A DNA stretch of 64,000 nucleotides from an uncultured Gammaproteobacteria bacterium (GTDB lineage: Bacteria; Patescibacteriota; Microgenomatia; Daviesbacterales; UBA10151): contig CAYMRP010000001.1 of NCBI GenBank assembly GCA_964392925.1, positions 51,945 to 115,944 on the forward strand, read 5' to 3'. The notes under the pieces are model-generated. The model was given only the letters and a program-made list of their open reading frames with translations, did no database searches and had not been told where the DNA came from. The stretch's first letter is position 1. Each line of letters begins with the position of its first letter. Shown here one piece after another: positions 10,416-60,405 of this stretch. A program made the translations under genes and the position numbers.

Positions 10416-10418
10416 ACT

Positions 10419-23969: not shown

Positions 23970-24034
23970 TTTAAAAACGAAATCTTTCTATCAAATATAG
24001 AAAAAGTATTTCCTCTTTTTCTTTCAGAAATATA

Positions 24035-26277: not shown

Positions 26278-26281
26278 ATTT

Positions 26282-26911: not shown

Positions 26912-26920
26912 ACGAAGGCC

Positions 26921-34177: not shown

Positions 34178-34179
34178 TT

Positions 34180-36433: not shown

Positions 36434-36439
36434 TAGTAG

Positions 36440-38813: not shown

Positions 38814-38816
38814 AAT

Positions 38817-39968: not shown

Positions 39969-39980
39969 GTTGTGAAAATA

Positions 39981-41878: not shown

Positions 41879-41942
41879 ACAATATTGATAGTTCTAACAT
41901 GTTTAGATTTTCAGTTCAATATGAAAGTGTATAATCTCCCTA

Positions 41943-42890
41943 ATGAAAATTGTATTTTTCGGACTGGGATCAATAGGCCAACGACATGCCCGGCTTCTAA
42001 AAGAAAATTATCAGCATCAGCTTTTCGCTTTCCGTTCCGGAATTAACAAATCCCCAAACAATTTAGGAATAACTGAATTAAATAATTGGCAGCAAATAAA
42101 AAAAATTAACCCCGAAGTGGTTTTTATCACTAACCCGACATCTCTTCATATAAAAACTGCTTTAAGGTGCGCTCATCTTGGAGCCAAGCTTTTCATCGAT
42201 AAACCAATCGGTAGTAGTCTAACAGGACTTGATGAGTTACTAAGTGTTATAGAAAGTAAAAAACTAGTCTCATATGTTGGTTACAATCTCCGTTTTCATC
42301 CGGTAATCATCAATCTGAAAAAATATTTTAAAACCAATAAATTTTTGCATATGCGAATTACTGCGGCTTCATATCTCCCTAATTGGAGACAGGGAACTGA
42401 TCACAAAAAAAGTTATCGTTCAAACAAACAAATGGGTGGGGGGATTATTCTCGATCTGTCACACGAAATTGACTATGCTGATTTCTTGTTGGAAGGCATT
42501 ACAACGATTAGAGGTCAATTTTCAAAAAGAAGTAATTTAACAATTAATGCCGAAGACTATGCTGATATTTTGATAAATTCAAAATTGGGTCCAGCAAACT
42601 TACACATCAATTTTTTAAGTCACCAAAATCAAAGAACAATCGAAATCGATTTTGAAAAAATGACTATCTCAGCCGATCTGATTAATTCAACAATCAAAAA
42701 ATTTAAAAAGGAGAAATTGATTAGTGAGCAAAGTTTTAATGTTGAAAGAGATTCAATTTTTAAGAAACAGCTTGAATATTTCTTTAAAAATATTGATAAT
42801 CCCAAAATGACTAACAATCTCACCGACGCAGCCAGACTTTATAAAAAAATAATCTCATTTAAGAATAGTGAAATTAACAAAAATGGATAA
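41943..42890 (+). CDS. Gfo/Idh/MocA family oxidoreductase
   Basis: 315 aa (IVFFGLGSIGQRHARLL). Confidence 0.6.
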   Translation: MKIVFFGLGSIGQRHARLLKENYQHQLFAFRSGINKSPNNLGITELNNWQQIKKINPEVVFITNPTSLHIKTALRCAHLGAKLFIDKPIGSSLTGLDELLSVIESKKLVSYVGYNLRFHPVIINLKKYFKTNKFLHMRITAASYLPNWRQGTDHKKSYRSNKQMGGGIILDLSHEIDYADFLLEGITTIRGQFSKRSNLTINAEDYADILINSKLGPANLHINFLSHQNQRTIEIDFEKMTISADLINSTIKKFKKEKLISEQSFNVERDSIFKKQLEYFFKNIDNPKMTNNLTDAARLYKKIISFKNSEINKNG

Positions 42891-44391: not shown

Positions 44392-45386
44392 GAGATTATA
44401 AAAAAGCATTTCAAAACAAAAGAATATTAGTAACCGGAGGAACCGGCTCAATTGGTACTGAAATCGTCCGTCAACTTTTAAAATACAGTCCAAAACAAAT
44501 TAGAGTTTTCTCCAGAGATGAGCACAAACAACATCTCATGCAAAACGAGCTTGGCAACCCTAAAAACAACAAGATTCTTCGTTTTCTAATAGGAGACATT
44601 CGGGATAAAGAGCGTTTGAATCGGGCCTTCAATGACATAGATATCGTTTTTCACGCCGCCGCTTTAAAACATGTCCCTTTTTGTGAAGCAAATCCTTTTG
44701 AAGCTATGAAAACCAACGTTTTGGGAACCCAAAATGTTATTGAACTAGCAATTGATCACCGAATCGAAAAAATGGTTTCTATCTCAACTGACAAAGCCGT
44801 CAATCCCAGTACTTTTATGGGAATTACCAAATTAATGTCAGAAAGAATGGTCATAGCCGCACCTAACTATTCAGGCCATCCGGAAATAAAATTTGCTGTA
44901 GTCCGTTTCGGTAACGTTATAAATTCCCGTGGTTCTGTAATTCCTTTATGGATCGATCAAATTAAAAAAGGCGGCCCTGTTCTTGTCACCGATAAAACCA
45001 TGGAACGGTTCTTTATGACCATCCCCGATGCTGTAAATCTGGTGTTTTCTGCTGCATCTCAAATGTTAGGCAGCGAGATCTTCGTCCTAAAAATGCAAAA
45101 GTATAAAATCTATGATATCGCCCAGGAATTAATTAAAAAATACGCAGCTGGTGGAAAAGTGAAAATAAAAATAGTAGGAGCCCGAGACCGTGAGAAAAGT
45201 GATGAGTATCTCTTCACTGAAGACGAAGCCAAACTAATGCTGGAATCCGGTCCCTTCCACATCATCCTTCCCAATAAGGACCTCTATCAAAAAAGACAAA
45301 ATAAATATAATTCCAAAATAAAATCCCCCAATCAAACCAGCATCTTCAGCGCCCTAGAGCAGCTTGACCTGACAAACCCACTCTAG
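44376..45386 (+). CDS. UDP-N-acetylglucosamine 4,6-dehydratase (PseB/FnlA/CapD family)
   Basis: 336 aa (RILVTGGTGSIGTEIVRQLL; VFSRDEHKQ; FHAAALKHVP). Confidence 0.7.
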   Translation: MDSYMRDYKKAFQNKRILVTGGTGSIGTEIVRQLLKYSPKQIRVFSRDEHKQHLMQNELGNPKNNKILRFLIGDIRDKERLNRAFNDIDIVFHAAALKHVPFCEANPFEAMKTNVLGTQNVIELAIDHRIEKMVSISTDKAVNPSTFMGITKLMSERMVIAAPNYSGHPEIKFAVVRFGNVINSRGSVIPLWIDQIKKGGPVLVTDKTMERFFMTIPDAVNLVFSAASQMLGSEIFVLKMQKYKIYDIAQELIKKYAAGGKVKIKIVGARDREKSDEYLFTEDEAKLMLESGPFHIILPNKDLYQKRQNKYNSKIKSPNQTSIFSALEQLDLTNPL

Positions 45387-45419
45387 ACAAACAAAAAAAT
45401 CCTGTTAGAATCCCATTTA

Positions 45420-46672
45420 ATGAGTTACAACGACCGAAGAGAAGCTTTTGTAAGTAAGAGAGTAGCAAGTGACCCTACTTTTGAAAAAGTAACACAACTT
45501 TCAATCCCGCAGAATATTTCATTTGATAAATTAGGAGCTTGGGAGGGAATGCTTGCCAGAGAACCTTTTACGACACCTACAATATTGGCATCTAGCCGTG
45601 ACACTGGAGAAACAAAAGTAGTTAGCAAAGCTATGGATGAATTCCATAGACGGGGATGGAAGACTGAGTTTATGGCAGTTGGAGACGGCTTGCCTTTATT
45701 AGAAGAAAGTGGGTACTCGAATAAACGGGGCGGAGAACCAAGGGTGCAGTAGTCACAGGATTTTCAGAACAAGATAATCTTGCAGCAGCAATGCATCTTA
45801 CAAGCCATAAAATTGGGGTAGAACATTATAGGATTGAAGACTTTGATGGAGCTCTAGGGGGTAATATGCAGGACTACTATGGTGCAGACTTTGGTCTGTT
45901 TGTACCCACAAAAGTCTTTGTGGCAAATGAATGGGCTGCGCAGCAGAACAGAAAATACTTTCATGAAAGCACAGTTGTAGTTTCTGGTCCGACTGGCATA
46001 CCAGCCCTTGACCTCGAACAGCAGTCAGCTACAAGAAACAATCTAAGAAGAAAGCTCAATATTCCTTTAGACGCTACAACTGGAGCTTGGTTTGGGCAGG
46101 TAGGCGAAGCTACTGTAAAAGCGCTTGAAATATATGTTAATGCATTAAATGAATCAGGCGCTACTCAGGATTTATTAGTAAGGTTTCACCCCAAATTCAT
46201 AAGAGCAGGTGATGTCCCCGCAGCCCTCCCCATTCTCGATAGATTTAATGGTAGGGTTCATCACGTTTCAGGGATAGATGTACCCGGAGTTAGAAATGAA
46301 AAAGTAGGCAATGTAAATGATGTTATCGACGCTATGAGTTTTGGAGGAAATGAACGCTCAACTACAGCAAATGAGTCCGCAGCACGTAGAAGACTCATGT
46401 TTAGTCTGGATATTGATGGTTTTGATACTCTGTATGGTCAGGATAAAAGTTTTGCTGTTGGGGCAATAGACAGAGGAGCCAGTCCTGTGATTAGAAGGCC
46501 GTATCAAGCAGCTGGCGTTATTAGAGAAGCCCTTTATGACAGAGCAGCCAGAGAAAAGTACTTTGGCCAAATGCAAGAATTTGAATCTGACGGGCTTGGG
46601 GCTTTTAATATTGTAAATGTCGTAGAAAAAGATATCTTCTTAGAAAGACATAAAATGCAGCCATTAAAGTAA
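45420..46672 (+). pseudogene. Compositionally atypical gene for a ~415-aa protein of unknown function, split by a 1-nt frameshift at a G4 run near position 45727 into ORFs 45420-45752 and 45791-46672
   Basis: The frame of the second ORF stays open upstream to 45725 (TGRRTKGAVVTGFSEQDNLAAAMHL), so it overlaps the end of the first ORF. Inserting one nucleotide at CGGGG joins the two frames. Local GC (~45%) and Ala/Gly/Arg-rich, Lys/Ile-poor composition differ from the flanking genes. The two parts may still be expressed, and a sequencing error is possible. Confidence 0.4.
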
Positions 46673-46701
46673 TTTAGATATTCTGTTATATTTGTTATTG
46701 A

Positions 46702-47076
46702 ATGTCAGATTCATTAATTAACCCAAACCCTTCTGCAATTTTCTACGAAAACCAAAACCTCTATGCTTGCCTCGCAGATTATCCGTTAAGCAAAGGCCAC
46801 TCTCTTGTCGTTTGGAAAAAACCAATCCCTGATCTCCATCTCCTAAACCCCAAAGAATATGAATCCCTCATGGAAATAGTTGATAAAGTTCGAAACGCCC
46901 TAATGAAAACTCTGAAAGTCGAAAAAGTTTACTTGATGTACATGGACGAAATAAAACATGTCCATTGGCACCTAATCCCGCGTTACAACAAACTTGGATT
47001 TAACATTCTTAAACATTCACCAAAAAAACTAGAGAATTATGATTTAGCAAAAAAGCTCAAACTTTCAATTACCTGA
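46702..47076 (+). CDS. HIT (histidine triad) family nucleotide hydrolase/transferase
   Basis: 124 aa with the HIT motif HVHWHLIPR. Confidence 0.65.
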   Translation: MSDSLINPNPSAIFYENQNLYACLADYPLSKGHSLVVWKKPIPDLHLLNPKEYESLMEIVDKVRNALMKTLKVEKVYLMYMDEIKHVHWHLIPRYNKLGFNILKHSPKKLENYDLAKKLKLSIT

Positions 47077-47108
47077 TAACTAAATTATACTTTCTTCCAG
47101 GCTAAATT

Positions 47109-48593
47109 ATGGTCAAAGAAAAAAACCTTGGAGAAAAAATTCTTAAAGGCAGTGTTATAGTCCTGATTCTCACTTTCTTAGGTTCGATTTTTGCTTACCT
47201 TATTAGGATAATCTTCTCCCGTTCTCTCTCCATCGAGAGTTACGGTTTATTCTACGCGGTCTTAGGACTTTTTAACGTCTTAACTACGTATATTGATTTA
47301 GGATATGGGTATTCAGTAGTTTATTTACTACCTAAATACATCAGGGCAAAAAAGTATAAAGAAGCCTGGAATGTTTTTATTCACGGCCAAACAGTTTCAT
47401 TAACAATTACAATTCTAGTTTCAATATTACTAATAATCTTCGCTCCATTTCTATCAAATAATTATTTTAAAGTCCCAGGCTCTGAAGCTCTCATCTATAT
47501 TTTTTGTTTATACCTAATTTCATACGTTATCTTAAATGGTCTAATCCAAATATTTGCCAGTCTCCAGCAGGCTTCTTATTTCGCTTCAATCACCGTTGTG
47601 AAGTGGTTCCTAACGCTTATTATTTCGTTAATATTCATTGGAGCCGGAATCCAAAATGTCTTGGTATTTGCCGCTGCGTTGGCAATAGCCCATCTTCTAA
47701 CTGCTGTCAGTTACACCTATTTGCTAATCATTAAGCATCCATTGTTAATCAAAAATAAGATCACTATTGAAAAAAATACCTACAAAAAAATGACAGCCTT
47801 CGCTTTACCAGCAATACTTGAGACAGTTGTCTATTCGGCTGTAATTGCCACTGATACTTTCTTATTAACCCTTTTTAGGGGAGTCAGGGATGTTGGTATC
47901 TACAATATAATTTATCCGCTTGCCTCGATTCCTGTGGTTTTATTCAACCCAATTAACGGCTTAATATTACCCCTGGTATCTCACCTCATGGAAGGGGATA
48001 AAACCCGGTTAACTTATTTAATGGAAAAAATTCTTGAGGTCATTCCTTTTATCAGCTTCTACTTCGTGCTCTTTATCGTTATCTTCCCTTCGGCAATAGT
48101 CAAATTAATTTTTGGTGATCAATGGAACGGGATGGTTGGATTACCGCTCAGTATATTATCAATGGGCGCGATTCCTATATTAATGTCTGCTATTTTGGGA
48201 GCAATATTACTCGGAACAGGCAGAGTTAAAGAAAAGCTGAAAGCTGCCTCAGTAATCGCCCTTCTCGGAGTTTCGATGAACACATTCTTAATCTGGACAT
48301 ACGGCGTTTTAGGAGCTGTTATAACTTCCACATTTGTCGCCACAACTCTCTCAATACTGTTTGTTATCCTTATCAAACAAACAATCAACTTTAAGATTCC
48401 TTTTTTGTTTTACACAAAACTTCTGATCTTTGGGGTAGTATTATTCGCAGCTGCCAGATTGCTTTCTCTCAATCCGCTTTCATGGACTTTAATAATATTC
48501 TACGGGTTATGCTACTCAGGTCTATATTTTGGCTTAGGCTGGTTATTAAAAGTTTATGATAAAGACTTAATAAAAATGTTGATTAAAAGATAA
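47109..48593 (+). CDS. wzx: Oligosaccharide/polysaccharide flippase, Wzx-like (MOP superfamily)
   Basis: 494 aa with about 12-14 TM segments. The N-terminal region (GSVIVLILTFLGSIFAYLIRIIFSRSLSIESYGLFYAVLGLF) is typical of polysaccharide biosynthesis flippases. Confidence 0.6.
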   Translation: MVKEKNLGEKILKGSVIVLILTFLGSIFAYLIRIIFSRSLSIESYGLFYAVLGLFNVLTTYIDLGYGYSVVYLLPKYIRAKKYKEAWNVFIHGQTVSLTITILVSILLIIFAPFLSNNYFKVPGSEALIYIFCLYLISYVILNGLIQIFASLQQASYFASITVVKWFLTLIISLIFIGAGIQNVLVFAAALAIAHLLTAVSYTYLLIIKHPLLIKNKITIEKNTYKKMTAFALPAILETVVYSAVIATDTFLLTLFRGVRDVGIYNIIYPLASIPVVLFNPINGLILPLVSHLMEGDKTRLTYLMEKILEVIPFISFYFVLFIVIFPSAIVKLIFGDQWNGMVGLPLSILSMGAIPILMSAILGAILLGTGRVKEKLKAASVIALLGVSMNTFLIWTYGVLGAVITSTFVATTLSILFVILIKQTINFKIPFLFYTKLLIFGVVLFAAARLLSLNPLSWTLIIFYGLCYSGLYFGLGWLLKVYDKDLIKMLIKR

Positions 48594-49202
48594 CTAATCC
48601 TTAGCCGGAGTAATTCTAATGATATCATCCTTAACTTCTAAGTTGTACTTAAGTCCTTTGATCATTTTCCTAATCTGGTTAACTTTTGGATAATCTTCCC
48701 GGCCATTAAAAAGTCTGGCATCATCAATTAAAATTACATGTCCTGACAATTTATGCGACAGAATGGCTTTTAATTCATCAATAACCGGTGTATTAACCTT
48801 AGTTTTAGCAGTTTTCCCACCAGAAAAATGTCCATCCAACCAAAATAAAGCTGGCGCTTTTAATTCTTTCAGTAATTTCTTAATTTCTTTTCCGCTGTCT
48901 CCTAAAACTATACTAATATGTTTATCACTCTTAAATTTATTTACGGCATTCTTATAATAGAATTCGCTAAGCTCAATACTGGTTAGCTTGTCAAAAGTTT
49001 TCTTTAGCGCCTCTATCATGTCTCCTTTGTATGTTCCAGTCTCGACTAAACTTTTTAAACTAAAATCCTTAGCATATTTTTTTAATACAAACTGCTTATA
49101 AATATGTGGTGGCGGAATTTTGCTGCCCGAAATTTTCCAATATATTAAAACTGCCGGTGATCTTTTTGCTTTGTTGACGAAATTACTGATTAAATTATTC
49201 AT
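48594..49202 (-). CDS. Putative SAM-dependent O-methyltransferase (TylF/MycF-like)
   Basis: 202 aa. ETGTYKGDM is a glycine-rich motif I-like segment and LFWLDGHF is a LDGD-like region. Confidence 0.4.
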   Translation of the reverse strand: MNNLISNFVNKAKRSPAVLIYWKISGSKIPPPHIYKQFVLKKYAKDFSLKSLVETGTYKGDMIEALKKTFDKLTSIELSEFYYKNAVNKFKSDKHISIVLGDSGKEIKKLLKELKAPALFWLDGHFSGGKTAKTKVNTPVIDELKAILSHKLSGHVILIDDARLFNGREDYPKVNQIRKMIKGLKYNLEVKDDIIRITPAKD

Positions 49203-49245
49203 TGTTGTTAAATATATGGTGTATAAGTAAAATACCTGATTACTG

Positions 49246-50040
49246 ATGAAAATTCAAAGGTTCATTTTAATTAATCTAAATTCTCTCTTCCCATTTCTCT
49301 ATCCAATCCTAAAATTGCTAAAAGGCGGCATTTACTTTAAAGGCATTGCCGCATTTATAAATGACTATCAAGAATACTCAAAATTGAATAAAAAATCCCC
49401 CAGTCCTTTTCAACTAGATATTCTCAATAATCATCCCATATATTTCGACCGCTATGATGAAGCAGGTCATATTCTCCAGCACTATTTTCATCAGGATATT
49501 TGGGCCGCCAAAAAAGTTTTTAAATCTGGCGTTAAAAATCACTATGATGTTGGTAGCCGTTTAGACGGTTTTATCTCTCATTGCTTAACATTTTGCAAAA
49601 TTACTATGCTGGACATAAGAGGCCTAGATAAAACTATACCTAATCTGGATTTCATCCAAACTGACTGTACTAATATGAAAAATATTAAAACAGGCAGTAT
49701 TAAATCTATCTCATCTCTTCACGCAATAGAGCATTTTGGGTTAGGCCGATATGGAGATCCAATTGATCCATGGGGCTATAAAAAAGCAATTGATGAATTG
49801 AAAAGAGTCACCAAAAAAGGCGGAGATATTTATTTTTCTGTTCCAATCGGAAAACAAAGACTTGAGTTTAATAACCAGCGGGTCTTCAGTCCGAAGTATG
49901 TGTTAGAACTTTTTTCAGGAATGAAATTGAAAGAGTTTAGCTTAGTTAACGATAGAAACGATTTCGTCGAAAATGTAAAACCGGAAAAGCATCTTAATGT
50001 TAAATATTCCTGTGGCCTGTTTCACTTTCAAAAAATCTGA
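49246..50040 (+). CDS. Methyltransferase-like protein (DUF268-like, class I SAM MTase clan)
   Basis: 264 aa. It has HYDVGSRLDGF and a SLHAIEHFGLGRYGDPIDPWGY ... KKGGDIYFSVP region. Confidence 0.4.
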   Translation: MKIQRFILINLNSLFPFLYPILKLLKGGIYFKGIAAFINDYQEYSKLNKKSPSPFQLDILNNHPIYFDRYDEAGHILQHYFHQDIWAAKKVFKSGVKNHYDVGSRLDGFISHCLTFCKITMLDIRGLDKTIPNLDFIQTDCTNMKNIKTGSIKSISSLHAIEHFGLGRYGDPIDPWGYKKAIDELKRVTKKGGDIYFSVPIGKQRLEFNNQRVFSPKYVLELFSGMKLKEFSLVNDRNDFVENVKPEKHLNVKYSCGLFHFQKI

Positions 50041-50927
50041 TTTTGTTTAACAAATTTCTTATCTCTATCAAAGAAATAAAGTGTTTTCTTTCCGTAATAA
50101 GAAGCGAATGACCCATATGTGCTGTTTGATCCAATAATTAAATCGCACATTGATAGCGCAAATAAATCTTGGATAACCTGTCCCGGGCCGTGAACAACAT
50201 CCAAATCTTTAAATAAACTAAATTCTATCAACCCATCAGAGAATATAACAAATCTTGTTTTACTTGTTTCAAAACGTCTAACTTTAATAAAGTATTTTAA
50301 GATTTCATAAACCTCTTTTGGGGAAAAGTACAGCGAACCACCTAAGAAAATTTTATAATCTCCCTGGCGGATATGAACTCCAATCAACTTTTTACCACCC
50401 TTACGATTGTCTGAAATAAATTTTTCTACAATCTTTATTATCTCTTTCTTCGGAGTAAGAAATTGTGTGATCTCCGTATGATACTTATCAATCCCGACCG
50501 GATTTCTGAAATTCCATCCCTCCGTGTAGACTCGGTTAATTGTGGAATTTTCAATATTCTTCAAAGCATTCTGCTGTTCTCTATTTCGCACTTTTGAAGG
50601 CGGCAGCAGAAAAACTTCAGAAGGGTCTTCCTTAAGTAGAGCGCCCTTCCAGAAAAAAGGAATAGCAGTCGTTAAAAACTTATACAATAAATAAGTAATC
50701 GCATGTGACTTGTAAAAATTTAAATCTTTTATAAATCCGAAAAATGCTGAATAAAATCTAGGATTTGGCAAATTGAAATATTTGTCATACTCATAAAATG
50801 AATAATTAATCAGATGATAATTTTTCTCCAAACAAAAAGCGTACATACTGCTATACAAAATCAACTGATTTCCTAGTCTACCGCCATTGTGTCTTAAGAT
50901 TACGACTTCTTTTTTCGGATTGCTCAT
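50028..50927 (-). CDS. Alpha-1,2-fucosyltransferase (GT11 family)
   Basis: 299 aa with the GT11 motifs RHNGGRLGNQLILYSSMYAF and GVHIRQGDY. Confidence 0.7.
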   Translation of the reverse strand: MSNPKKEVVILRHNGGRLGNQLILYSSMYAFCLEKNYHLINYSFYEYDKYFNLPNPRFYSAFFGFIKDLNFYKSHAITYLLYKFLTTAIPFFWKGALLKEDPSEVFLLPPSKVRNREQQNALKNIENSTINRVYTEGWNFRNPVGIDKYHTEITQFLTPKKEIIKIVEKFISDNRKGGKKLIGVHIRQGDYKIFLGGSLYFSPKEVYEILKYFIKVRRFETSKTRFVIFSDGLIEFSLFKDLDVVHGPGQVIQDLFALSMCDLIIGSNSTYGSFASYYGKKTLYFFDRDKKFVKQNQIF

Positions 50928-50986
50928 TACTGTAATTATATCCTGATAACCCTAACAACAAAAAGCTGTATAATCAAAAAATCTTA

Positions 50987-53134
50987 ATGAAAAAAATAAT
51001 TATTACTTTCTTTATTTTTCTATTCTCTTTTCTTTCAGTTTTTTCATCAGGTGTTATTGATTCAATTGATGGTTTTCTTTATCTCGGTGTGGCCAGAAAT
51101 ATTTATTACGAAGGTGAGCCAGTCGCGCCGGAATATAAATACAATACCAGACAAAATATTCATTTAAACGTTTATAAAGGTAAAGATGGTAAAACTTACA
51201 GTCTGACTGGTTTAGGCTATTCATTGGCAATGATGCCAGCTGTTTTATTAACCGATATTATATATAAGTTTTATGATGTTTCTCCTCCGATTAACTTTCC
51301 CTTAGAAAACGATTGGTTAATTCTTTTAACCGCCAGTTTCACTAATGTTTTCTTTGGTGCAATGTTGGGTACTATTTTATTGATCTACTTTGGGTTACTG
51401 GGTCTAAATAAGAGATCATCAATTCTCTTAAGTCTTATTTCAATTTTTACCACCAATCTTTTTCCTTACACCAAACATTCAATGGCTCACATGATGTTTA
51501 TCGCCTTCTTGATGCTATCTTTTTTAATGTTCAAACTTCATTCTCAAAGTAAGAAAAGAGTTCAATTAATAATCGCCGGTGCTTCATTTGGTGTTGTTTG
51601 TCTGACGTATAACGCCACTTTCGGATTGGCAGCCATACCTTTAATTGTTTATTATTTCTTACTCAATCAGCCAAGAAAAAAACTGACTTATCTTAAAACA
51701 GTTATTTCAGATATCGGTCTTTTTATAATCGGTGTATTACCTCTGCTGGCAATTTATATTTGGTTTGAAAACGTTAGGGCGCTTGATTATTACAATGGAG
51801 CTGTCGATATAGCTAGTGTCGGCTTTACTTATATAACCTACACACTTCCGGTGTCTGTATTTATCGAAGGCATTTATGGGCAGTTGTTTAGTCCTGGAAG
51901 AAGTATTTTTCTCTACAGTCCATTGCTCATGTTACCCATACTTTTTTGGCATAAAATAAAAAAGAATTTTTATCCAGAAGCAATAATTTTTGTTTTATAT
52001 TCGATAATTTTAATTTGCTTTTATGCTAAAGCCTACAGTGTCGGAAGCAGTGAACAGGGAGTCGCAGCTTTGTGGCATGGAGAATCGAGTTGGGGACCAA
52101 GGTACCTAACCCCAATAATTCCTTTGGGAATGCTGGTGGTGGCTGGAATTTACAAGAAAATTTCCCGTAAAGCGCACATCTTTGTTTTTTATCCGCTTGT
52201 CGGAGCCGGTATCTTTGTTCAGATGCTTGGTGTATTAATGCCATATCAAACTAAATTTGCCGGACTACAGCCTAATTTCTTTCTAAACGGCACTGAATAT
52301 ACCTCCTATGCATATTCAAACCTCCTTCCCCGCTATATGCCAATTCTTGCCCAATCCAGAAACTTATTTAAATTAGTTAAAAATTTTCCTCAAACATTTC
52401 TAACAGGACCAAATGATCTCCGCTTTATGGATGGCGTAGATTTTCCTTTTTTTGTCGGTAACGAGAGGTGGCGGACAATAGAAAGTAATGGCTATATAAC
52501 TTTTAACAATTCTGAGGAAGTAAAAAAAATATCTTTAGGTCTGGCCAATCATCCTTTGGAGGAAGGTTCCGATTCTGCTCAGATTATGGTTTTTTTAAAT
52601 GGAGAAAAATTATTACCTAGTGAAATTATAATTCCTATTTCTGAGAGAAAACTACTTGAGTTAAATATCCCCAACTCTCTTAAAGATAGTAACAACCAAT
52701 TAATTATTGCAAATAAATTTGTTTCCAAAGATGGATTAGTTAGCAGCGATTCAATTTTCCTGGATGATCCCTCAAAGTATCAGAATAAAACAGTTACCCC
52801 GGCTAAAAATACTGCCCAAATACTTGGGTTATATTCATTTCAAATAAACGACATTCCCCAAAATCTCGAGTCAATTACAGTTCCTTATGTCTCGGATCTT
52901 GGCCCTAAAATTCTCGGATTTAAATATAATAATTGGGGAGGGGAGAATAAAGATCCCTGGAAAACATGGGATATTCATACTCAAACTTTTGAAAGATTGC
53001 CTGATTTTTGGTGGCTAAGAAATCTATATTATTGGGATATTCCAAAGGCTTGGATTCTCACGGCGTTTTTCCTGAACGTCGTAGTATTAATCTGGTCAGG
53101 AATTAAACTCAGAATATATCTCCGCAAAACTTAA
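50987..53134 (+). CDS. Large membrane protein (715 aa): ArnT-like GT-C membrane domain plus a ~300-aa C-terminal extracytoplasmic domain
   Basis: A first-loop acidic motif (GVIDSIDGFLYLGVARNIYYEGEP) follows TM1. There are about 12 TM segments in the first 420 aa, then a hydrophilic region and a final C-terminal TM segment. Confidence 0.5.
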   Translation: MKKIIITFFIFLFSFLSVFSSGVIDSIDGFLYLGVARNIYYEGEPVAPEYKYNTRQNIHLNVYKGKDGKTYSLTGLGYSLAMMPAVLLTDIIYKFYDVSPPINFPLENDWLILLTASFTNVFFGAMLGTILLIYFGLLGLNKRSSILLSLISIFTTNLFPYTKHSMAHMMFIAFLMLSFLMFKLHSQSKKRVQLIIAGASFGVVCLTYNATFGLAAIPLIVYYFLLNQPRKKLTYLKTVISDIGLFIIGVLPLLAIYIWFENVRALDYYNGAVDIASVGFTYITYTLPVSVFIEGIYGQLFSPGRSIFLYSPLLMLPILFWHKIKKNFYPEAIIFVLYSIILICFYAKAYSVGSSEQGVAALWHGESSWGPRYLTPIIPLGMLVVAGIYKKISRKAHIFVFYPLVGAGIFVQMLGVLMPYQTKFAGLQPNFFLNGTEYTSYAYSNLLPRYMPILAQSRNLFKLVKNFPQTFLTGPNDLRFMDGVDFPFFVGNERWRTIESNGYITFNNSEEVKKISLGLANHPLEEGSDSAQIMVFLNGEKLLPSEIIIPISERKLLELNIPNSLKDSNNQLIIANKFVSKDGLVSSDSIFLDDPSKYQNKTVTPAKNTAQILGLYSFQINDIPQNLESITVPYVSDLGPKILGFKYNNWGGENKDPWKTWDIHTQTFERLPDFWWLRNLYYWDIPKAWILTAFFLNVVVLIWSGIKLRIYLRKT

Positions 53135-53140
53135 TTTAGC

Positions 53141-53875
53141 TCACTTAGTTAATTTGTGATATTCCTCAAATACCTTAGAAGTCTCTCCATCGATAACTAT
53201 TTTCGATTCATTTATTAGAATTGCTCTATCACAAAAACTCTTTATCGAGTGCTCATCATGACTTACAAATACGATCGTTTTCTCCCCCGATGCTTTTATC
53301 TCTTTTAATCTCTTCATGCATTTCTCCTGAAATGCAACATCCCCAACAGCTAAAACTTCATCAATCAAAAGTATCGGCGCATTAGTATTTATTGCAATCG
53401 AAAACCCCAGCCTCATATACATCCCGCTTGAATATTTTTTAACCGGGGTGTGAATAAATTCCTTAAGTTCACTAAATTCTATAATCTCCTCAACTTTCGC
53501 TTCAATCTCTTTTTTATGCATCCCAAGAATTGCAGCATTCAAAAAAATATTTTCATATCCGGATAATTCATAATGAAACCCTGCTCCTAATTCTATTAAA
53601 GGGGCTACTTTTCCTTCAATATTAACTTTCCCCGAAGTGGGAAAAGTAACTCCGGCTATTAGTTTCAAAAGTGTAGATTTACCAGATCCATTTTTACCAA
53701 CAACTCCAACAGTTTCCCCTTGTGCAATTTCAAAACTCATATTTGATAATGCTGTAAACTTTTTTGCCCAAGGCTTACCAGTCAATAAATTAGGTAAAAG
53801 TTCTTTAAAAGTTCTGTCATCCTGCAGATAAAAACTCTTAGTTACATTTTTAAATGATATAGTCGTGTTTCCCAT
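53141..53875 (-). CDS. wzt: ABC transporter ATP-binding protein, polysaccharide export type (Wzt/TagH/KpsT-like, no C-terminal carbohydrate-binding domain)
   Basis: Walker A (GKNGSGKST), ABC signature (YSSGMYMRLGFSIA), Walker B (ILLIDE) and H-loop (VSHD) are all present. I trimmed the start to Met49 (MGNTTISF) at 53875 so that it abuts the wzm stop at 53877. The track ORF extends to 54019. Confidence 0.75.
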   Translation of the reverse strand: MGNTTISFKNVTKSFYLQDDRTFKELLPNLLTGKPWAKKFTALSNMSFEIAQGETVGVVGKNGSGKSTLLKLIAGVTFPTSGKVNIEGKVAPLIELGAGFHYELSGYENIFLNAAILGMHKKEIEAKVEEIIEFSELKEFIHTPVKKYSSGMYMRLGFSIAINTNAPILLIDEVLAVGDVAFQEKCMKRLKEIKASGEKTIVFVSHDEHSIKSFCDRAILINESKIVIDGETSKVFEEYHKLTK

Positions 53876-53876
53876 A

Positions 53877-54656
53877 TTAAACCAAATCTGCAAAAACTCT
53901 CTCCGATCTCTTAAAAGTAATAAACCCAACAACAAAAATAACCAGTGAAAACACAAATGACCAGGCAATAGTCCCCAAATCAAAGCTTTGCCCAAAAAGT
54001 GCCGATCTATAACCTTCAATTATGCCGACCATCGGATTTAACTTATAAATTCCAATCCACTCCGGCGGCACCATTGACAGCGGATAAACCACTGGCGAAA
54101 CATACATCCAAAGCATCAACACTAAATTAGCTAAATATTGAATATCCCGGTAGAACAAATTTGCGGTAGAAAAAATAAATCCGATTCCGGTTATCAACAT
54201 AATTTGAATCCCCAGCAGTGGAATAATCCAAAAAGCACTTGGAGAAATAGAAACCTGATAAAAAATCATAAATACTCCTAAAACAATTGATGCAAAAAAT
54301 AAATCGATTAACTTAGCTGTCACAATCGAGTAAATAAAAACTTCTCTTGGGAAAGCGACCTTTTTCAAAAGTTCCCGATTATCAACCAAAGCTAAAGTTG
54401 AATTAGCAACCACTGTTTGAAGATATATCCAAGGCAATAGTCCTATGAATAAAAATACCGGATAGGGGATACTTGTCGGAAACCTGAAAACAACTGAGAA
54501 AACAAAAGAATAAACTAGTAACTGAAGTAAAGGATTCAAAATAACCCAGGCATATCCAATAATCGACTGCTTATACCTGGCTTTAATTTCTCTCTGGATG
54601 AGTTGATACAACAAATACTTATAAGAAGTAAACGGTAAAAGAAAAGACTTCAGCAT
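53877..54656 (-). CDS. wzm: ABC-2 type polysaccharide exporter permease (Wzm/TagG-like)
   Basis: 259 aa with 6 TM segments. The N-terminal LIQREIKARYKQSIIGYAWVILNPLLQ signature is typical of ABC-2 permeases. Confidence 0.7.
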   Translation of the reverse strand: MLKSFLLPFTSYKYLLYQLIQREIKARYKQSIIGYAWVILNPLLQLLVYSFVFSVVFRFPTSIPYPVFLFIGLLPWIYLQTVVANSTLALVDNRELLKKVAFPREVFIYSIVTAKLIDLFFASIVLGVFMIFYQVSISPSAFWIIPLLGIQIMLITGIGFIFSTANLFYRDIQYLANLVLMLWMYVSPVVYPLSMVPPEWIGIYKLNPMVGIIEGYRSALFGQSFDLGTIAWSFVFSLVIFVVGFITFKRSERVFADLV

Positions 54657-54733
54657 TAACTATTATTATATTGCATACCTGTCCGTTTCACACTAATTTC
54701 ATTTATCCGCAACTTATGGTACTTTATTCGTGA

Positions 54734-55648
54734 ATGCAAAATACTAAGCCAGAAATTGAATTCACCGGTGAACGCATGGTGCCTGAATTAAATCAGGGAA
54801 TGACGCTCTATTACGAGCACCTGCTTCGCTACATGATGGCTTCCCGCTTTGTTAAGAACAAAAAAGTTCTAGATGTAGGCTGCGGAGTCGGCTATGGATC
54901 ATGGATGCTAAAAAAATCTGGAGCCTCCGAGGTCTATGGAATAGATATTTCAAAAGATGCTGTTAGTTACGCTGATAAAAAATTCGCCGAGTCAAAATTA
55001 CAATTTGAGATTGGTGATGGCGAAAATCTTAAAAACTATCAAAGAAATGTTGATGTCATAACCGCTTTTGAGTTCATCGAACATATCCATAACCAAAACG
55101 CATTTCTCAAAGGCGTAAAAGAAAATCTTAAACAAAATGGTCTATTCTTTGTCTCAAGTCCCAATAAAAATACTTATCAAAACCATAATCATTTCCATGT
55201 CAATGAATTAACCCCTGCAAACTTCGAACAGCTTTTGAAAAAATACTTCAAACACGTGCTTATCTTAGATCAGCGATTTTTGTTCACTAATTATATTATT
55301 CCTACTCATTCAAAAAGTGATATTAATCTGGATAAATTACACGACAATTTTGTTAAAGAAAAAATCGAATCAATATTGCCTTTAAATAAAATAGAAGATT
55401 CGCGTTACATGATCGCTATTTGTTCGGATAAAAAGCTCGACTTAAATCAAGAATATTTTTCAATCTCCTCTTATGATGTAGATAAATTTTCTTTAAAACA
55501 CGGCATTGAAGGGCTCTATGAAGACTGGCATTCCCAGTCCCAAGCCTCAGCAAAAGATAAAGAATTATTAAATCAAATCCGCGATTCCTGGTTTTTTAAA
55601 TTATGGGAGTTTTACTGTCTTATTAAAAAAACCTTAAAAGGAAAATGA
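54734..55648 (+). CDS. Class I SAM-dependent methyltransferase (possible glycan chain-terminating/modifying MTase)
   Basis: 304 aa (VLDVGCGVGYGSWML ... ITAFEFIEHI). Confidence 0.6.
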   Translation: MQNTKPEIEFTGERMVPELNQGMTLYYEHLLRYMMASRFVKNKKVLDVGCGVGYGSWMLKKSGASEVYGIDISKDAVSYADKKFAESKLQFEIGDGENLKNYQRNVDVITAFEFIEHIHNQNAFLKGVKENLKQNGLFFVSSPNKNTYQNHNHFHVNELTPANFEQLLKKYFKHVLILDQRFLFTNYIIPTHSKSDINLDKLHDNFVKEKIESILPLNKIEDSRYMIAICSDKKLDLNQEYFSISSYDVDKFSLKHGIEGLYEDWHSQSQASAKDKELLNQIRDSWFFKLWEFYCLIKKTLKGK

Positions 55649-57045
55649 AAAAATCTCAGTTTCCTTTTGTCTCAATAATAATTCTTAATTACTTCGGGGA
55701 GAAAGTCATAAAGAATGTTATTAATTCACTTGTTAATCTAAATTATCCGTCCGGGTCTTTTGAAATAATTGTTGTCGATAATAACTCTCAGGATAAAAGT
55801 TTAGAGATTCTAGAGCAGTTAAAAACAAAACTTCCAAATTTAACAGTTATGCCTCTCAGTAAAAATCTTGGTTTCTCCAGAGGCAATAACGTTGGTATTA
55901 AAGTGGCCAAAGGCGAATATGTAGCACTATTAAATAACGATTGTGTAGTTTCCAAAAACTGGCTCTCGAATCTGGTTAGTACCGCTCAAAAAAATTCAAA
56001 AGTCTTTGCCGTCGCTTCAAAAATTCTTCTCTATCAAAAATATTATGAATTGAACGTCCCCATCTCTTCTGACATAGAGCCTTTTTATTCTTATGTCTCT
56101 AAATCCGCGCTTTATAATTTTGGCGGGAAAAGACTCTATTTCAATTCCTATCTTGAAAATGGTTCTTTACAGGCTCAAATTCCTTATGATCCGGTTTCCG
56201 ATACTCTGCTTGAAATCCAAATGCTGATACATTATAAAAAAAGCCCAACTCGGAAAATTAAAGATATTTTTTCTGGCCTCTCAAAAAGCATCACAGTCAA
56301 GGACTATAAAATCCAAAAGAAAGATATTCTTTTTACTCTTGAGATAGATCTTAAAAGCAAAATCTCGATTGGAAAATCAATCAGTAAAATTCAAAATGCC
56401 GGAATAATTCCCTTTCAAGATGGGTATGCCAGAGACATAGGGGCTATAGTCCGCGATAGAACCCAATACTATGAATATGACGAGGGTCAGTTTGATAAAG
56501 AAACAGAAGTTTATGCTTTTTGCGGAGCTGCTGTTTTGTTAAGCAAGGAGGGTCTGGATAAAATTGGACTGCTTGATGAGACCTTTTTTATGTACTATGA
56601 AGACGTTGAGATTTCTGAGCGCGCCCGTTTAAATGGCTACCAAATCATCTATAGTCCAAAAGCAGAGGTCCGGCATATTCATGCCCTTTCCAGTAAAGAA
56701 GGTAGTAAATTTTTTATCTACCAGGTTGAAAAGGGAAGATTACTGCACGTTTTCTATAATTTCCCTTCAAGAGTTTTTATCCGTCAATACGTCACCACTA
56801 TATTTATAGTTATTTATGGTCTTATGAATATCCTAATGAGTCTCAAATATTTGAAAGCGATCTATAAAGATAAAAGCCAAGATAAGCCAAATTTTGGTCG
56901 TACTTTTCAATTGTTAAGGGTAAGCATGTATTTTCTGATAAATTTGCCTTATTTAATTTTAAAAAGATATAAAAAGAAATCTAATAAAAATATTATAGAG
57001 AATAATTACCAGCAAATAACTAGCGGAAAGTGGTATTTTAATTAA
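55645..57045 (+). CDS. Family 2 glycosyltransferase (466 aa, with C-terminal membrane-associated extension)
   Basis: FVSIIILNYFGEKVIKNVINSL ... VVDNNSQDKS ... LNNDC. The C-terminal region has hydrophobic segments. Confidence 0.7.
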   Translation: MKKSQFPFVSIIILNYFGEKVIKNVINSLVNLNYPSGSFEIIVVDNNSQDKSLEILEQLKTKLPNLTVMPLSKNLGFSRGNNVGIKVAKGEYVALLNNDCVVSKNWLSNLVSTAQKNSKVFAVASKILLYQKYYELNVPISSDIEPFYSYVSKSALYNFGGKRLYFNSYLENGSLQAQIPYDPVSDTLLEIQMLIHYKKSPTRKIKDIFSGLSKSITVKDYKIQKKDILFTLEIDLKSKISIGKSISKIQNAGIIPFQDGYARDIGAIVRDRTQYYEYDEGQFDKETEVYAFCGAAVLLSKEGLDKIGLLDETFFMYYEDVEISERARLNGYQIIYSPKAEVRHIHALSSKEGSKFFIYQVEKGRLLHVFYNFPSRVFIRQYVTTIFIVIYGLMNILMSLKYLKAIYKDKSQDKPNFGRTFQLLRVSMYFLINLPYLILKRYKKKSNKNIIENNYQQITSGKWYFN

Positions 57046-58622
57046 TGAAAAAAGCAGTAGTTTATGATAGGTGGCTTCAAACACTCGGTGGCGGAGAAGT
57101 GGTTGCTTGCAATATAGCCAGAATCCTTAAGCAGTCAGGTTATGATGTGCTGTTAGTTAGTGGTAAAAAAGTCACAAAGGAAACAATCTACGAAAAGCTC
57201 CACATTGATGTATCTGGCATAGAATTTGTTGAAATTTGGAATGATGAATATGCATTAAAAAAACTCACCCAGGGCAAGGATTTGTTTATTAACATTTCTT
57301 TTATGGATTATTCCCGGGGGTTTGCCAAAAAGAATTTATACTATGTAAACTTTCCCACTAAACCCTATGTTACTTTTAAAGGCTTAGTTTTTTCGTTAAC
57401 TGCACCTTTTGTGGCCGGCTTCATTAAGCCAATAGAATCAATGAGTACAACAGATGCTCCTGTAATAATCAGAGGCCGCCCTGCCTATCTACTAGAAAAT
57501 ACTAATAGATATGCGATTTATAATCTTCAGTTAGGTAAAACTCAAACTATCGAATTCAGTCTTCTTATCGAGAATTTTAGTAAAACCCAACTTAAAAATA
57601 TATCACTGACACTCGATAATGCCGAACTCTTAAATACTTGGACAGCAGTTTTCCACGAAAGTAATATTCTCACTTATATACTTAGATTTACTCCAAAATC
57701 CAACACCGTCTACTTAAATATTATGATCGGGGATTTTGGTAAAAAAACTTTTGAATTAGAGCAGGGACGAATCTATTTGCTTTATCCAAAAATTGAATTG
57801 AAAAAAATTTCGACATTCTTATTTAGTGATTTTCTAAATAAATTTCAAATCAGAATGAGAGCTGGAATATTTGTAAATATTCTCGGTCGCCTAAGGAGCT
57901 ATCAATCCATTCTTACCTATTCATCATTCGCTCAAAAGTGGATAAAAAGATATTGGGGTAGAAATTCTGTAATCATCGCCCCTCCGGTCTCGTTTATCTT
58001 CGATGATTACGATCTATCAAAGTATAAAAAGAAAAATTGGATTTGTTCAGTCGGTAGATTCTTCACTTTGGGACATGGGAAAAAACAGGAAATAATGATC
58101 GAGGCTTTTAAGAAAATTTATGATCAGGGTTATAAAGATTGGGAGCTTCATCTTGCAGGAGGCTTAGGTAATGAGCCTTCCAGTATTGAATTTTTCCAAT
58201 ATTTAAAAGATCAATCCGAAGGATATCCAGTTTATTTCCATGTAAATGTCTCCAGAAAAGAAATCGAAGAAATTTACCTGAATTCCAAAATATACTGGCA
58301 CGCTACTGGGTTTGATGAAAATGAAAATTATCAGCCTGTAAGGTTTGAGCATTTTGGAATATCTCCAATAGAAGCCGTTAGTGCCGGTTGTATACCAATC
58401 CTTTATCGCGGCGGCGGCTTACCGGAAATAATTAATCAACTGGAATTAAATCCTGATGATTATTTATTTGGAAATACCAAGTCGCTCATTGCTTTAACAA
58501 TATCTCAAATTGAGAAAAAGACTGAGCCTTTAGACTGGAAAAAAATCTTTAAAATATTAAATAACTCTTACTCGAAAGCCGTCTTTAAGACGAAATTCTT
58601 AAAACTAATTAATTCCCTTTAA
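57045..58622 (+). CDS. Family 4 glycosyltransferase (GT-B; 525 aa)
   Basis: The C-terminal GT4 motif reads EHFGISPIEAVSAGCIPILYRGGGLPEI. The start overlaps the upstream stop as ATGA. Confidence 0.65.
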   Translation: MKKAVVYDRWLQTLGGGEVVACNIARILKQSGYDVLLVSGKKVTKETIYEKLHIDVSGIEFVEIWNDEYALKKLTQGKDLFINISFMDYSRGFAKKNLYYVNFPTKPYVTFKGLVFSLTAPFVAGFIKPIESMSTTDAPVIIRGRPAYLLENTNRYAIYNLQLGKTQTIEFSLLIENFSKTQLKNISLTLDNAELLNTWTAVFHESNILTYILRFTPKSNTVYLNIMIGDFGKKTFELEQGRIYLLYPKIELKKISTFLFSDFLNKFQIRMRAGIFVNILGRLRSYQSILTYSSFAQKWIKRYWGRNSVIIAPPVSFIFDDYDLSKYKKKNWICSVGRFFTLGHGKKQEIMIEAFKKIYDQGYKDWELHLAGGLGNEPSSIEFFQYLKDQSEGYPVYFHVNVSRKEIEEIYLNSKIYWHATGFDENENYQPVRFEHFGISPIEAVSAGCIPILYRGGGLPEIINQLELNPDDYLFGNTKSLIALTISQIEKKTEPLDWKKIFKILNNSYSKAVFKTKFLKLINSL

Positions 58623-60324: not shown

Positions 60325-60405
60325 TCTTCTAGAATAATTCTCTATTAGTTTTTAAGCAATACTGCTAAATGTAAAAAAGTAAATTTACTGATATTATTAT
60401 CTACA

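Follow-up and report, generated by a model that had tools for sequence, protein, structure and literature searches.

Linkage of a predicted ABC-2 glycopolymer exporter and a Wzx-type flippase in a glycan island of Daviesbacteria-like organisms: one envelope glycan or two?

The 64-kb stretch of contig CAYMRP010000001.1 analysed here (the whole of which is referred to as the window) represents a single glycan island, in which all of the approximately 57 genes are glycan-related, and it encodes two translocases of different types: a Wzx-like flippase and a Wzm/Wzt-type ABC-2 exporter. The question raised by this locus is whether the combination stands for two glycans made independently or for two steps in the making of one. 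An earlier note on this DNA placed the two systems about 5 kb apart, in agreement with the 4.5 kb measured between the Wzx-like and Wzt genes, and took them to imply at least two differently assembled glycans. The comparison with related loci turned against the latter claim: gene content and synteny, together with the analogy to characterised systems, suggest with about even confidence that the ABC-2 exporter and the Wzx-like protein serve one envelope-glycan assembly line, encoded by a cassette of Microgenomates (Daviesbacteria-like) bacteria.

Two translocases in a conserved cassette

The exporter occupies positions 53141-54656 on the minus strand. Its permease (Wzm, 259 aa, 53877-54656) matched ABC2_membrane (PF01061) with 72.5 bits in a Pfam scan, and its PDB matches included Aquifex Wzm (69.9 bits) and TarG (69.6 bits). 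The ATPase (Wzt, PF00005, 244 aa) was assigned to 53141-53875 with the start read from the sequence: the mechanically called open reading frame (ORF), 53141-54019, starts at a TTG overlapping Wzm and was superseded by the ATG at 53875, one base past the Wzm stop codon. Among the PDB proteins, the ATPase scored 237 bits with the nucleotide-binding domain of the Aquifex O-antigen Wzt, 193 with TarH, 185 with TagH, 149 with the M. tuberculosis RfbE and 110 with KpsT. Of the 404 residues of the Aquifex Wzt, only 20-236 are covered by the alignment before the window protein ends, indicating that the carbohydrate-binding domain is missing. Such a C-terminal extension was found in none of the 23 loci of the window Wzt clade, while an Aquifex-type binding domain was present in just 3 of the 73 Wzt genes of the related loci (locus L032, one member of Anaerolineae and one of Brocadiia). 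None of the tested NCBIfam equivalogs (TagH, galactan Wzt/Wzm, KpsM) reached its cut-off: the ATPase scored 217.6 vs 538, 204.7 vs 320 and 186.5 vs 400 (the last for galactan export), and the permease 64.2 vs 380 (galactan export) and 61.8 vs 300. With a permease adjoining its ATPase and with Wzt, TarH and TagH as the nearest solved relatives, the pair is classified from its sequence as a Wzm/Wzt-TarGH-type ABC-2 glycopolymer exporter. Both the Wzm/Wzt pair at this position and the lack of a C-terminal carbohydrate-binding module in Wzt had already been recognized in the earlier note, and only the Wzt start had to be shifted.

The flippase gene (47109-48593, plus strand, 494 aa) had been called Wzx-like in the same note, with MATE and MurJ proteins named as the alternatives. 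In the Pfam scan it matched Polysacc_synt (PF01943; 77.1 bits at a gathering cut-off of 28.2) and Polysacc_synt_3 (PF13440; 61.6 bits at a cut-off of 23), while MurJ/MVIN (PF03023), MATE/MatE (PF01554) or any other Pfam family gave no match even at E<=10. A crude hydropathy scan showed 14 peaks, some of them split, corresponding to approximately 12-14 membrane helices, and a phmmer search against the PDB sequences produced no hits. The protein thus belongs, by its family matches, to the Wzx-type (PST family) flippases of the MOP superfamily, and its identification as MurJ or MATE was rejected. A lipid II flippase (MurJ/SpoVB-like) unrelated to the glycan genes is the least probable of the explanations considered. 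The best NCBIfam match was indeed SpoVB, albeit with 31 bits against a cut-off of 372, and the Bacillus MurJ-type proteins also belong to PF01943; however, the scores with SpoVB, MOP flippase and TuaB were all just 26-31 bits, i.e. far below every equivalog cut-off, the gene is consistently located within glycan cassettes, and its fast divergence between close relatives (see below) is unexpected for an essential housekeeping flippase.

The linkage of the two translocases was analysed in 80 related loci obtained from a scan of one genome per species, using tblastn with the window proteins followed by searches with hidden Markov models built from the recovered families, and genes were counted as linked when located within 10 kb of Wzm. 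The loci with Wzm at least 52% identical shared a common cassette consisting of M547, GT4_525 and GT2_466 (all three in minus orientation), sometimes M571, M715, Wzm, Wzt and, often, the Wzx-like gene (the glycosyltransferases, GT2_466 and GT4_525, and the membrane proteins with M numbers are described below). Fifteen of these clade loci were fully flanked, with at least 8 kb on each side: GT-C-like genes were present in all 15, M715 in 13, M547 in 12 and the Wzx-like gene in 11. In contrast, the 26 more distant loci contained the Wzx-like gene in only two cases and M715 in one, and the difference between the clade and distant loci in the presence of the Wzx-like gene near Wzm was significant (Fisher's exact p=2.6e-5).

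In five genomes, the genes for Wzm, Wzt, (GT-C) and Wzx formed one tight same-strand string. In L012, 6 nt separate Wzm from Wzt and 7 nt Wzt from Wzx; the Wzt-Wzx distance is 1 nt in L021 and 2 nt in L013; in L008, Wzt is followed by M715 after 6 nt and M715 by Wzx after 4 nt; finally, in L064 Wzt and M715 overlap by 1 nt and M715 and Wzx by 17 nt. In L032, L068 and L028, the gene abutting Wzm is a shorter and more divergent MOP gene. The first of these loci (CAZCNT010000002.1, L032:993-17353) is a condensed form of nearly the entire island, with all genes on the same strand: three PMT_2 genes, a GT2 gene, a PIG-V-like gene, the MOP flippase, Wzm and Wzt, followed by MT304, GT2_466, GT4_525, a GacI-like gene, DUF2304 and another GT2. 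The clade-wide linkage, the tight strings and the L032 arrangement together argue that the exporter and the flippase are not chance neighbours, but members of one conserved module. Across the same loci the Wzx-like proteins were only 27-52% identical compared to 57-65% for Wzm, which means that the flippase diverges much faster. Such a difference fits a flippase adapted to a cargo that varies, with the exporter adapted to a backbone that remains conserved, and, considering the variable sugar genes in the neighbourhood, fits a conserved backbone carrying variable side chains.

The competing explanation, according to which two independent glycans share the island, one built from Wzx-flipped units polymerised outside and the other exported by the ABC system as a chain made by the methyltransferase/GT2/GT4 operon (54734-58622), deserves the most weight among the rivals but is still unlikely. 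Apart from the presence of both translocase classes, it is favored by the position of the Wzx-like gene in a separate transcription unit with nonulosonic-acid-type genes and by the presence of several separate sugar pathways in the island (nonulosonic acid, heptose-like, acetamidino). However, five relatives have the Wzx-like gene in one operon with Wzm/Wzt, the occurrence of this gene close to Wzm is clade-specific, and L032 combines both translocases and all glycosyltransferase classes in one string. Moreover, Wzy, Wzy_C (PF04932) and EpsG-type (PF14897) proteins gave no match with any ORF of at least 100 aa in the whole 64 kb, confirming that no Wzy can be identified, as the earlier note had stated, and neither Wzz nor an initiating phosphoglycosyltransferase was found there. 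With neither Wzy nor a WbaP/WecA-type initiator, the window does not contain a classical Wzx/Wzy pathway, although the missing Wzy is not fatal to the two-glycan explanation, since GT-C enzymes, such as WpsI of L. lactis, can polymerise. Taken together, the shared cassette, the five tight strings and the missing Wzy and initiator speak against at least two differently assembled glycans and for a single line.

In the window itself, the Wzx-like gene is the final member of a same-strand run of sugar-nucleotide genes identified by Pfam (41943-47076, plus strand), with gaps of 30 and 33 bases ahead of it. The run encodes an oxidoreductase, a fusion of CMP-transferase and SDR, a PseB-like dehydratase, the 425-aa product of a frameshifted gene and a HIT protein. 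Promoter and terminator scans of the region 41500-60500 gave counts at chance (65 sites vs 67.6 expected and 16 vs 12.1), and operons are, therefore, defined here by gene spacing. The frameshifted gene (45420-46672) appears as two ORFs of 110 and 293 aa, which are two frames of one gene intact in the sibling L084: tblastn placed residues 1-109 in frame 3, but residues 118-425 in frame 2. The frameshift is thus located near 45746 and would represent a pseudogene, strain variation or a sequencing error. The 425-aa protein matched neither Pfam nor NCBIfam. The siblings L084 and L085 also contain approximately 700-770 extra bases between the HIT and the Wzx-like genes (window 47076-47109), and this segment includes a 206-aa ORF without counterpart in the window (L084:17651-18271).

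Downstream of the Wzx-like gene lies a variable accessory block of three genes with weak Pfam matches on mixed strands (48594-50927), coding for a methyltransferase-like protein of 202 aa (48594-49202, minus strand), a DUF268/methyltransferase-like protein (49246-50040, plus strand) and a GT11-like transferase (50028-50927, minus strand). The block is syntenic in the Daviesbacteria locus L004. In the sibling L086 (93-95% nt identity; L086:13724-15025), the Wzx-like gene is inverted and adjoins M715, with none of the three accessory genes (methyltransferase-like, DUF268 and GT11-like) in between, which fits an inversion or a deletion of approximately 3.9 kb compared to positions 47077-50933 of the window. 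Only weak AT-rich matches and no convincing inverted repeats were found flanking this segment, and an invertible switch is, therefore, not claimed.

The methyltransferase-glycosyltransferase operon and the O-antigen analogy

Divergently from the exporter, a plus-strand operon of three genes (54734-58622) starts with MT304, a class I SAM methyltransferase (54734-55648; Methyltransf_31, _23 and _25), followed by the GT-A glycosyltransferase GT2_466 (55645-57045; PF00535, 96.7 bits) and the GT-B (GT4) glycosyltransferase GT4_525 with a long N-terminal region (57045-58622; PF00534, 70.9 bits); the overlaps between the three are 4 bases and 1 base. The best PDB matches of GT2_466 were TarS, chondroitin and heparosan synthases and TarP, while dolichol-phosphate-mannose synthase scored just 21.6 bits. 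Judged from these relatives, the enzyme is of the nucleotide-sugar-using type acting on a polymer, and the closeness to TarS and the polysaccharide synthases, rather than to the dolichol-phosphate-mannose synthase, makes it a candidate backbone polymerase. GT4_525 produced nothing in the phmmer search against the PDB. The Wzm orthologue has an orthologue of GT2_466 at a distance of up to 10 kb in 17 related loci and one of GT4_525, always beside GT2_466, in 19, and thus the tie between the exporter and the neighbouring glycosyltransferases, assumed in the earlier note, was corroborated.

The same note compared this operon with the terminator methyltransferase and serial glycosyltransferases of the ABC-dependent O-polysaccharides of E. 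coli O8/O9a (WbdA-D plus Wzm/Wzt with a binding domain). The likeness consists in an ABC-2 exporter adjoining serial glycosyltransferases and a methyltransferase. In contrast to that system, the binding domain is absent from the window Wzt and from all 23 clade loci, while MT304 is generic: it gave only generic class I matches in the PDB with no WbdD chain at E<=1e-4, and neither a kinase nor a coiled-coil part is present. Neither the Wzt carbohydrate-binding domain nor a WbdD-like terminator, as expected in an O8/O9a-type system, is therefore encoded here. MT304 is also not conserved in the cassette, its orthologues at a coverage of at least 50% being present in only 2 of the 80 loci (L032 and L048). 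In L032, the likeness goes further: there, the MT304 orthologue directly follows a Wzt of 377-397 aa aligning with residues 4-374 of the Aquifex Wzt, i.e. including the binding domain. Such an arrangement would be expected for a cap-and-read export checkpoint and lends some comparative support to the analogy. The comparison thus gains some support from a relative, but not from the window with its domain-free Wzt and generic methyltransferase.

The O-polysaccharide framing as a whole, which also depends on the host envelope, was not supported. More than 1000 homologues of Wzm were found, and those with names come from the candidate phyla radiation; the named relatives of Wzm, M715 and M571 belong to Daviesbacteria, Woesebacteria, Microgenomates or Patescibacteria, and nearly all of the informatively titled loci to Daviesbacteria, Woesebacteria, Shapirobacteria, Roizmanbacteria, Gottesmanbacteria, Microgenomates and Patescibacteria. 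Since the literature regards members of the candidate phyla radiation as having a single membrane, the vocabulary of O-antigens and lipopolysaccharide (LPS) is probably inapplicable. Together with the domain-free Wzt and the lack of a WbdD match, this disfavors the E. coli O8/O9a model. Sibling strains with 93-96% nt identity originate from wastewater metagenomes (ERR977425, JGI 3300005115). Many third-party assemblies with the cassette are titled 'Gammaproteobacteria' or 'Pseudomonadales' (L003, L005, L008, L010, L012, L013 and others, including isolate HK-STAS-PATE-15). The GC content of these loci of 30-42% and a gene content matching that of the candidate phyla radiation loci indicate that the titles are probably mislabels.

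An explanation of the locus by LPS O-antigens of a double-membrane bacterium, in line with the O8/O9a analogy, is accordingly considered very improbable. It could be argued from the nearest solved Wzt, which is that of the Aquifex O-antigen exporter, and from the many 'Gammaproteobacteria' and 'Pseudomonadales' titles among the relatives. But TarH and TagH scored nearly as high as the Aquifex Wzt, the curated names among the relatives are those of candidate phyla radiation members, the loci with suspect titles have a GC content of 30-42%, and the window, which alone was examined for the LPS context, contains no WaaL or Wzy_C in addition to having neither a binding domain on its Wzt nor a WbdD-like protein. 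The O8/O9a systems would also differ from the window by their envelope, the host here being probably single-membrane.

GT-C membrane proteins, donor synthesis and the nearest known systems

The window contains at least 15 genes of the GT-C type. Three proteins of the cassette belong to families without a Pfam model. M715 (50987-53134, plus strand) is, according to its model and hhalign, a GT-C-fold membrane glycosyltransferase, which is extended towards its C terminus by a beta-sandwich similar to carbohydrate-binding modules (CBM) and by a last membrane helix. Its AlphaFold2 model (pLDDT 81.6, pTM 0.86) was matched by Foldseek to ArnT, EmbB/EmbC, Pmt4 and STT3 in the membrane part and to BcsB, CBM51 and CBM29 in residues ~480-620. 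The full architecture is rare, with 78 representatives at E<=1e-30 among 1.84 billion proteins. M571 (58609-60324, minus strand) is a GT-C-fold membrane transferase with a model closest to AftA and AftD, and also similar to STT3, PglB, AglB and DPY19. Its mechanically called ORF starts with a GTG and gives 571 aa, while an identical JGI protein has 533 aa, and the true start may be located approximately 38 codons downstream. M547 (60406-62049, plus strand) is probably a GT-C-like protein of an uncharacterised family, for which the hhalign match spans the first outer loop and helices 2-6. The hhalign probabilities against the PMT_2 paralogues of the window were 92.9% for M715, 96.6% for M547 and 91.3% for M571, and invariant acidic residues just past the first helix, a hallmark of GT-C enzymes, are present in all three families. 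For M715 and M571, a GT-C fold and a conserved acidic motif in the first outer loop were both observed. Profile searches with M715, M547 and M571 against the PDB sequences produced nothing, and Pfam scans of the alignment members of M547 and M571 gave no consistent family. PF19830 is precomputed on many M571 homologues, and M571 had no match in the Pfam copy used, which omits PF19830. On the basis of sequence and models, M715 and M571 represent GT-C-fold families and M547 a probable one, all three without a Pfam model.

Pfam produced no match for these three, nor for the membrane proteins encoded at 12303 and 62046. The latter two, M384 (PIG-V-like, 12303-13457) and its paralogue M379 (PIG-V/GT87-like GT-C transferase, 62046-63185), both on the plus strand, were placed through their family alignment A6, in which PF04188 matched 6 of the 10 members (best E 1.6e-10) and GT87 2 of the 10. 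All of the tested polytopic membrane proteins are thus predicted to be of the GT-C type rather than Wzy, and M384, M379 and M571 were rejected as candidates for the missing Wzy, being PIG-V-like or GT-C-fold proteins. Further GT-C genes include six tandem PMT_2 paralogues (483-10415, plus strand; Pfam), the PMT_2 genes at 16221-18050 and 30111-31661, and another one at 63182-64000 (plus strand), of which only the N-terminal part is left by the window end and which has a full 475-aa counterpart with PF13231 in the siblings L084-L087; the protein encoded at 31654-33201 gave only a marginal match. The mutual identity of the six tandem paralogues is just 30-34%. They are followed on the same strand by GT2 (10419-11285) and GT4 (11282-12316) genes, both identified by Pfam, and by M384, and the counterpart of this whole block (483-13457) is located directly upstream of Wzm/Wzt in L026, L027, L032, L036 and L048.

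Such an abundance of GT-C enzymes might also indicate protein glycosylation, for example of an S-layer or pilin, with lipid-linked glycans moved by Wzx or the ABC system and transferred by GT-C enzymes resembling oligosaccharyltransferases or PMT, as is the case in the S-layer glycan clusters of Gram-positive bacteria and in the Agl pathway of archaea. The likeness of the M571 model to STT3, PglB, AglB and DPY19, at least eight genes with the PMT_2 (protein O-mannosyltransferase-type) domain and a PpgS-like GT2 scoring equally against AglJ are all consistent with it. A parallel is the archaeal Agl N-glycosylation, in which a polyprenyl-phosphate-hexose synthase, flippase, GT-C and methyltransferase are combined in one cluster (AglJ, AglD, AglR, AglS, AglB, AglP): it likewise has a flippase (AglR, or Agl15, comparable to the Wzx-like protein), the transferases AglS and AglB and the methyltransferase AglP, and AglJ is a joint top match of the GT2 encoded at 13445. 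On the other hand, the WWDxG motif of STT3/PglB/AglB is absent from the M571 consensus of 35 aligned homologues, which shows NGYSGYD as the motif conserved in the C-terminal part, the PMT_2 domain occurs also in GacL, CsdD and GtlB, which glycosylate wall polymers, the CBM-like domain of M715 resembles the situation in Emb and AftD, and the window differs from the Agl clusters by its ABC-2 exporter. With no S-layer or other candidate acceptor protein encoded in the window, protein glycosylation seems rather improbable as an explanation, and the single assembly line of an envelope polymer remains the preferred one.

The synthesis of the lipid-linked donors for such a line is represented by two overlapping plus-strand genes, a PpgS/GacI-like GT2 (13445-14128; PF00535) and a three-helix DUF2304 membrane protein (14110-14472; PF10066, 61.7 bits). 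The GT2 matched the NCBIfam models of PpgS with 99.7 bits over the full length and of AglJ with 99.3 bits. PpgS is a polyprenyl-phospho-GalNAc synthase, and the DUF2304 protein GacJ activates GacI in S. pyogenes, as Rv3632 does for PpgS in M. tuberculosis; the pair, therefore, looks like a polyprenyl-monophosphate-sugar synthase with its activator. In L032, the GacI-like/DUF2304 pair directly follows the ABC/methyltransferase/GT2/GT4 string.

Several sugar pathways are encoded in addition. A nonulosonic-acid-type pathway (33230-46672) includes NeuB, a hydrolysing UDP-GlcNAc 2-epimerase, the CMP-transferase/SDR fusion and the PseB-like dehydratase, and beside it are WbuX (351 bits, above the cut-off) and HisH/HisF-like amidotransferase genes for acetamidino sugars. 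A heptose-like nucleotide-sugar set (22752-28938) consists of a SIS isomerase, a GHMP kinase, two epimerase/dehydratases and a fusion protein joining a nucleotidyltransferase to a HAD phosphatase, together with a sugar C-methyltransferase (PF08421, PF08484). Accessory genes at 18052-18840 and 20706-21812 code for a DUF5672 protein (181.6 bits) and a TIGR04440-type glycosyltransferase (160.6 bits, above the cut-off). Many GT2 and GT4 enzymes, methyltransferases and one acyltransferase_3 complete the island. Signatures of an RgpF-type rhamnosyltransferase or of the dTDP-rhamnose (rmlABCD) pathway were not found in the window, with only generic SDR/epimerase matches.

The closest parallel to this list of parts comes from the rhamnose-rich wall polysaccharides of Gram-positive cocci. 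In the S. pyogenes GAC, L. lactis cwps and E. faecalis EPA systems the same parts operate as one pathway: the backbone is made in the cytoplasm and exported by an ABC transporter; a GT-A/DUF2304 pair makes a polyprenyl-monophosphate sugar, which is sometimes lengthened to an oligosaccharide; a Wzx-family flippase (GacK, WpsG) moves this donor outward, and GT-C enzymes attach or polymerise it outside, with the genes for the initiator (GacO/TagO) and for the LCP ligases located outside the cluster. The likeness to gac (GacDE plus GacI/J/K/L), cwps (rhamnan plus WpsA/B/G/J/I) and epa extends to the ABC-2 exporter, the GT-A plus DUF2304 pair, the Wzx-family flippase and GT-C: in the window, too, a GT-A enzyme is paired with DUF2304, and a Wzx-family flippase and GT-C enzymes are linked to the ABC exporter. 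The differences concern the missing rmlABCD-type or Rgp/Gac rhamnosyltransferase signature, different backbone glycosyltransferases (466 and 525 aa), far more GT-C genes, including the three families without a Pfam model, the sugars, which here are of the nonulosonic-acid, heptose and acetamidino types, and the host, which belongs to the candidate phyla radiation and not to Firmicutes. By analogy, the cassette would work like the GAC/cwps design without being a member of the rhamnose cell wall polysaccharide (Rha-CWPS) family, given that neither the RgpF-type nor the dTDP-rhamnose signature is present.

A related logic is found in the mycobacterial arabinogalactan, with GlfT1/2, Wzm/Wzt (Rv3781/Rv3783), AftA-D, EmbA-C and PpgS/Rv3632 as its parts. 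Common features are a polymer made in the cytoplasm (as proposed for the window), its export with a Wzt that has no binding domain, its elaboration by many GT-C enzymes using polyprenyl-phosphate sugars, an M571 model nearest to AftA/AftD, an M715 like ArnT/Emb with a CBM-like domain, and the PpgS-like GT2 with DUF2304. In contrast to arabinogalactan, the window lacks a GlfT-like galactofuranosyltransferase and any sequence-level homology to AftA/Emb, and its Wzt and Wzm remain under the NCBIfam 'galactan export' cut-offs already given (186.5 vs 400 and 64.2 vs 380). A Wzx-type flippase is part of the window cassette, but is not known to be part of the mycobacterial arabinogalactan cluster.

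A possible assembly line and its significance

The match of the parts to the Gram-positive design, with the related arabinogalactan logic, led to the following backbone/decoration scheme. It starts from the part identities, folds and conserved linkage observed above, while its substrates, the order of its steps and the final acceptor are proposed from gene content and synteny. At the cytoplasmic face, GT2_466 and GT4_525 would polymerise the backbone on a polyprenyl-phosphate primer, with the initiating enzyme encoded outside the window, and MT304 may methylate this backbone in the window strain. The polymer would then be exported by Wzm/Wzt, which acts without a carbohydrate-binding domain. 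In parallel, the PpgS/GacI-like GT2 with DUF2304 and other cytoplasmic glycosyltransferases would load sugars or short oligosaccharides onto polyprenyl phosphate, possibly including the nonulosonic-acid and heptose-type sugars of the island, and the Wzx-like flippase would move the lipid-linked units across the membrane. Outside the cell, these units would serve as donors for the GT-C enzymes (M547, M571, the PIG-V-like proteins, the PMT_2 paralogues and M715, the last with a CBM-like domain), which are proposed to decorate, extend or attach the exported polymer.

Several observations weigh against this scheme. In the window, the Wzx-like gene is located on the strand opposite to Wzt and 4.5 kb away from it, and appears to be co-transcribed with the sugar-nucleotide genes and not with the exporter. 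Four of the 15 fully flanked clade loci lack a Wzx-like gene within 10 kb, and the GacI/J-like pair of the window is 33 kb away. Since the 64 kb contain neither an initiating phosphoglycosyltransferase (WbaP PF02397, WecA PF00953) nor an LCP ligase, both the first and the last step of the pathway lie outside the picture. The fold of M571 is as near to protein oligosaccharyltransferases as it is to arabinofuranosyltransferases, so that the acceptor could be a protein. The taxonomic assignment was made through the relatives, many of which are titled 'Gammaproteobacteria' or 'Pseudomonadales', with no marker gene present in the window. Finally, synteny demonstrates linkage rather than a common product.

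Clusters combining an ABC exporter with a Wzx-type flippase represent a known Gram-positive design and are, therefore, not categorically new. The new features are an unstudied lineage, three unannotated GT-C families and an island corresponding to 5-6% of a genome of approximately 1 Mb, as estimated from related near-complete assemblies of 1.1-1.2 Mb. We found no description of such a cassette in Patescibacteria or the candidate phyla radiation in the literature. A bolder interpretation, put forward only tentatively, is that the combination of GT2-GT4, Wzm-Wzt, the Wzx-like flippase and M715, M547 and M571 constitutes an undescribed lineage-specific pathway for the main surface glycoconjugate of Microgenomates, in which ABC export and flipping are merged. 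If true, this pathway would include three uncharacterised GT-C families, one of them Emb-like with a CBM-like domain and another one AftA/STT3-like, and the strain variation in the Wzx-proximal block would provide these ultra-small, probably host-dependent cells with a variable sugar coat.

The members of the candidate phyla radiation, with genomes of approximately 1 Mb, are considered to depend on other cells or to live in attachment to them, and their envelope is experimentally almost uncharted. For annotation, the analysis assigns a fold to three membrane-protein families without a Pfam model, and it shows that the O-antigen vocabulary should not be carried over to organisms of the candidate phyla radiation. 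The conserved core, consisting of the ABC exporter, the Wzx-like flippase, the GT2/GT4 pair and the three unannotated GT-C families, would be suitable for a heterologous-expression test.

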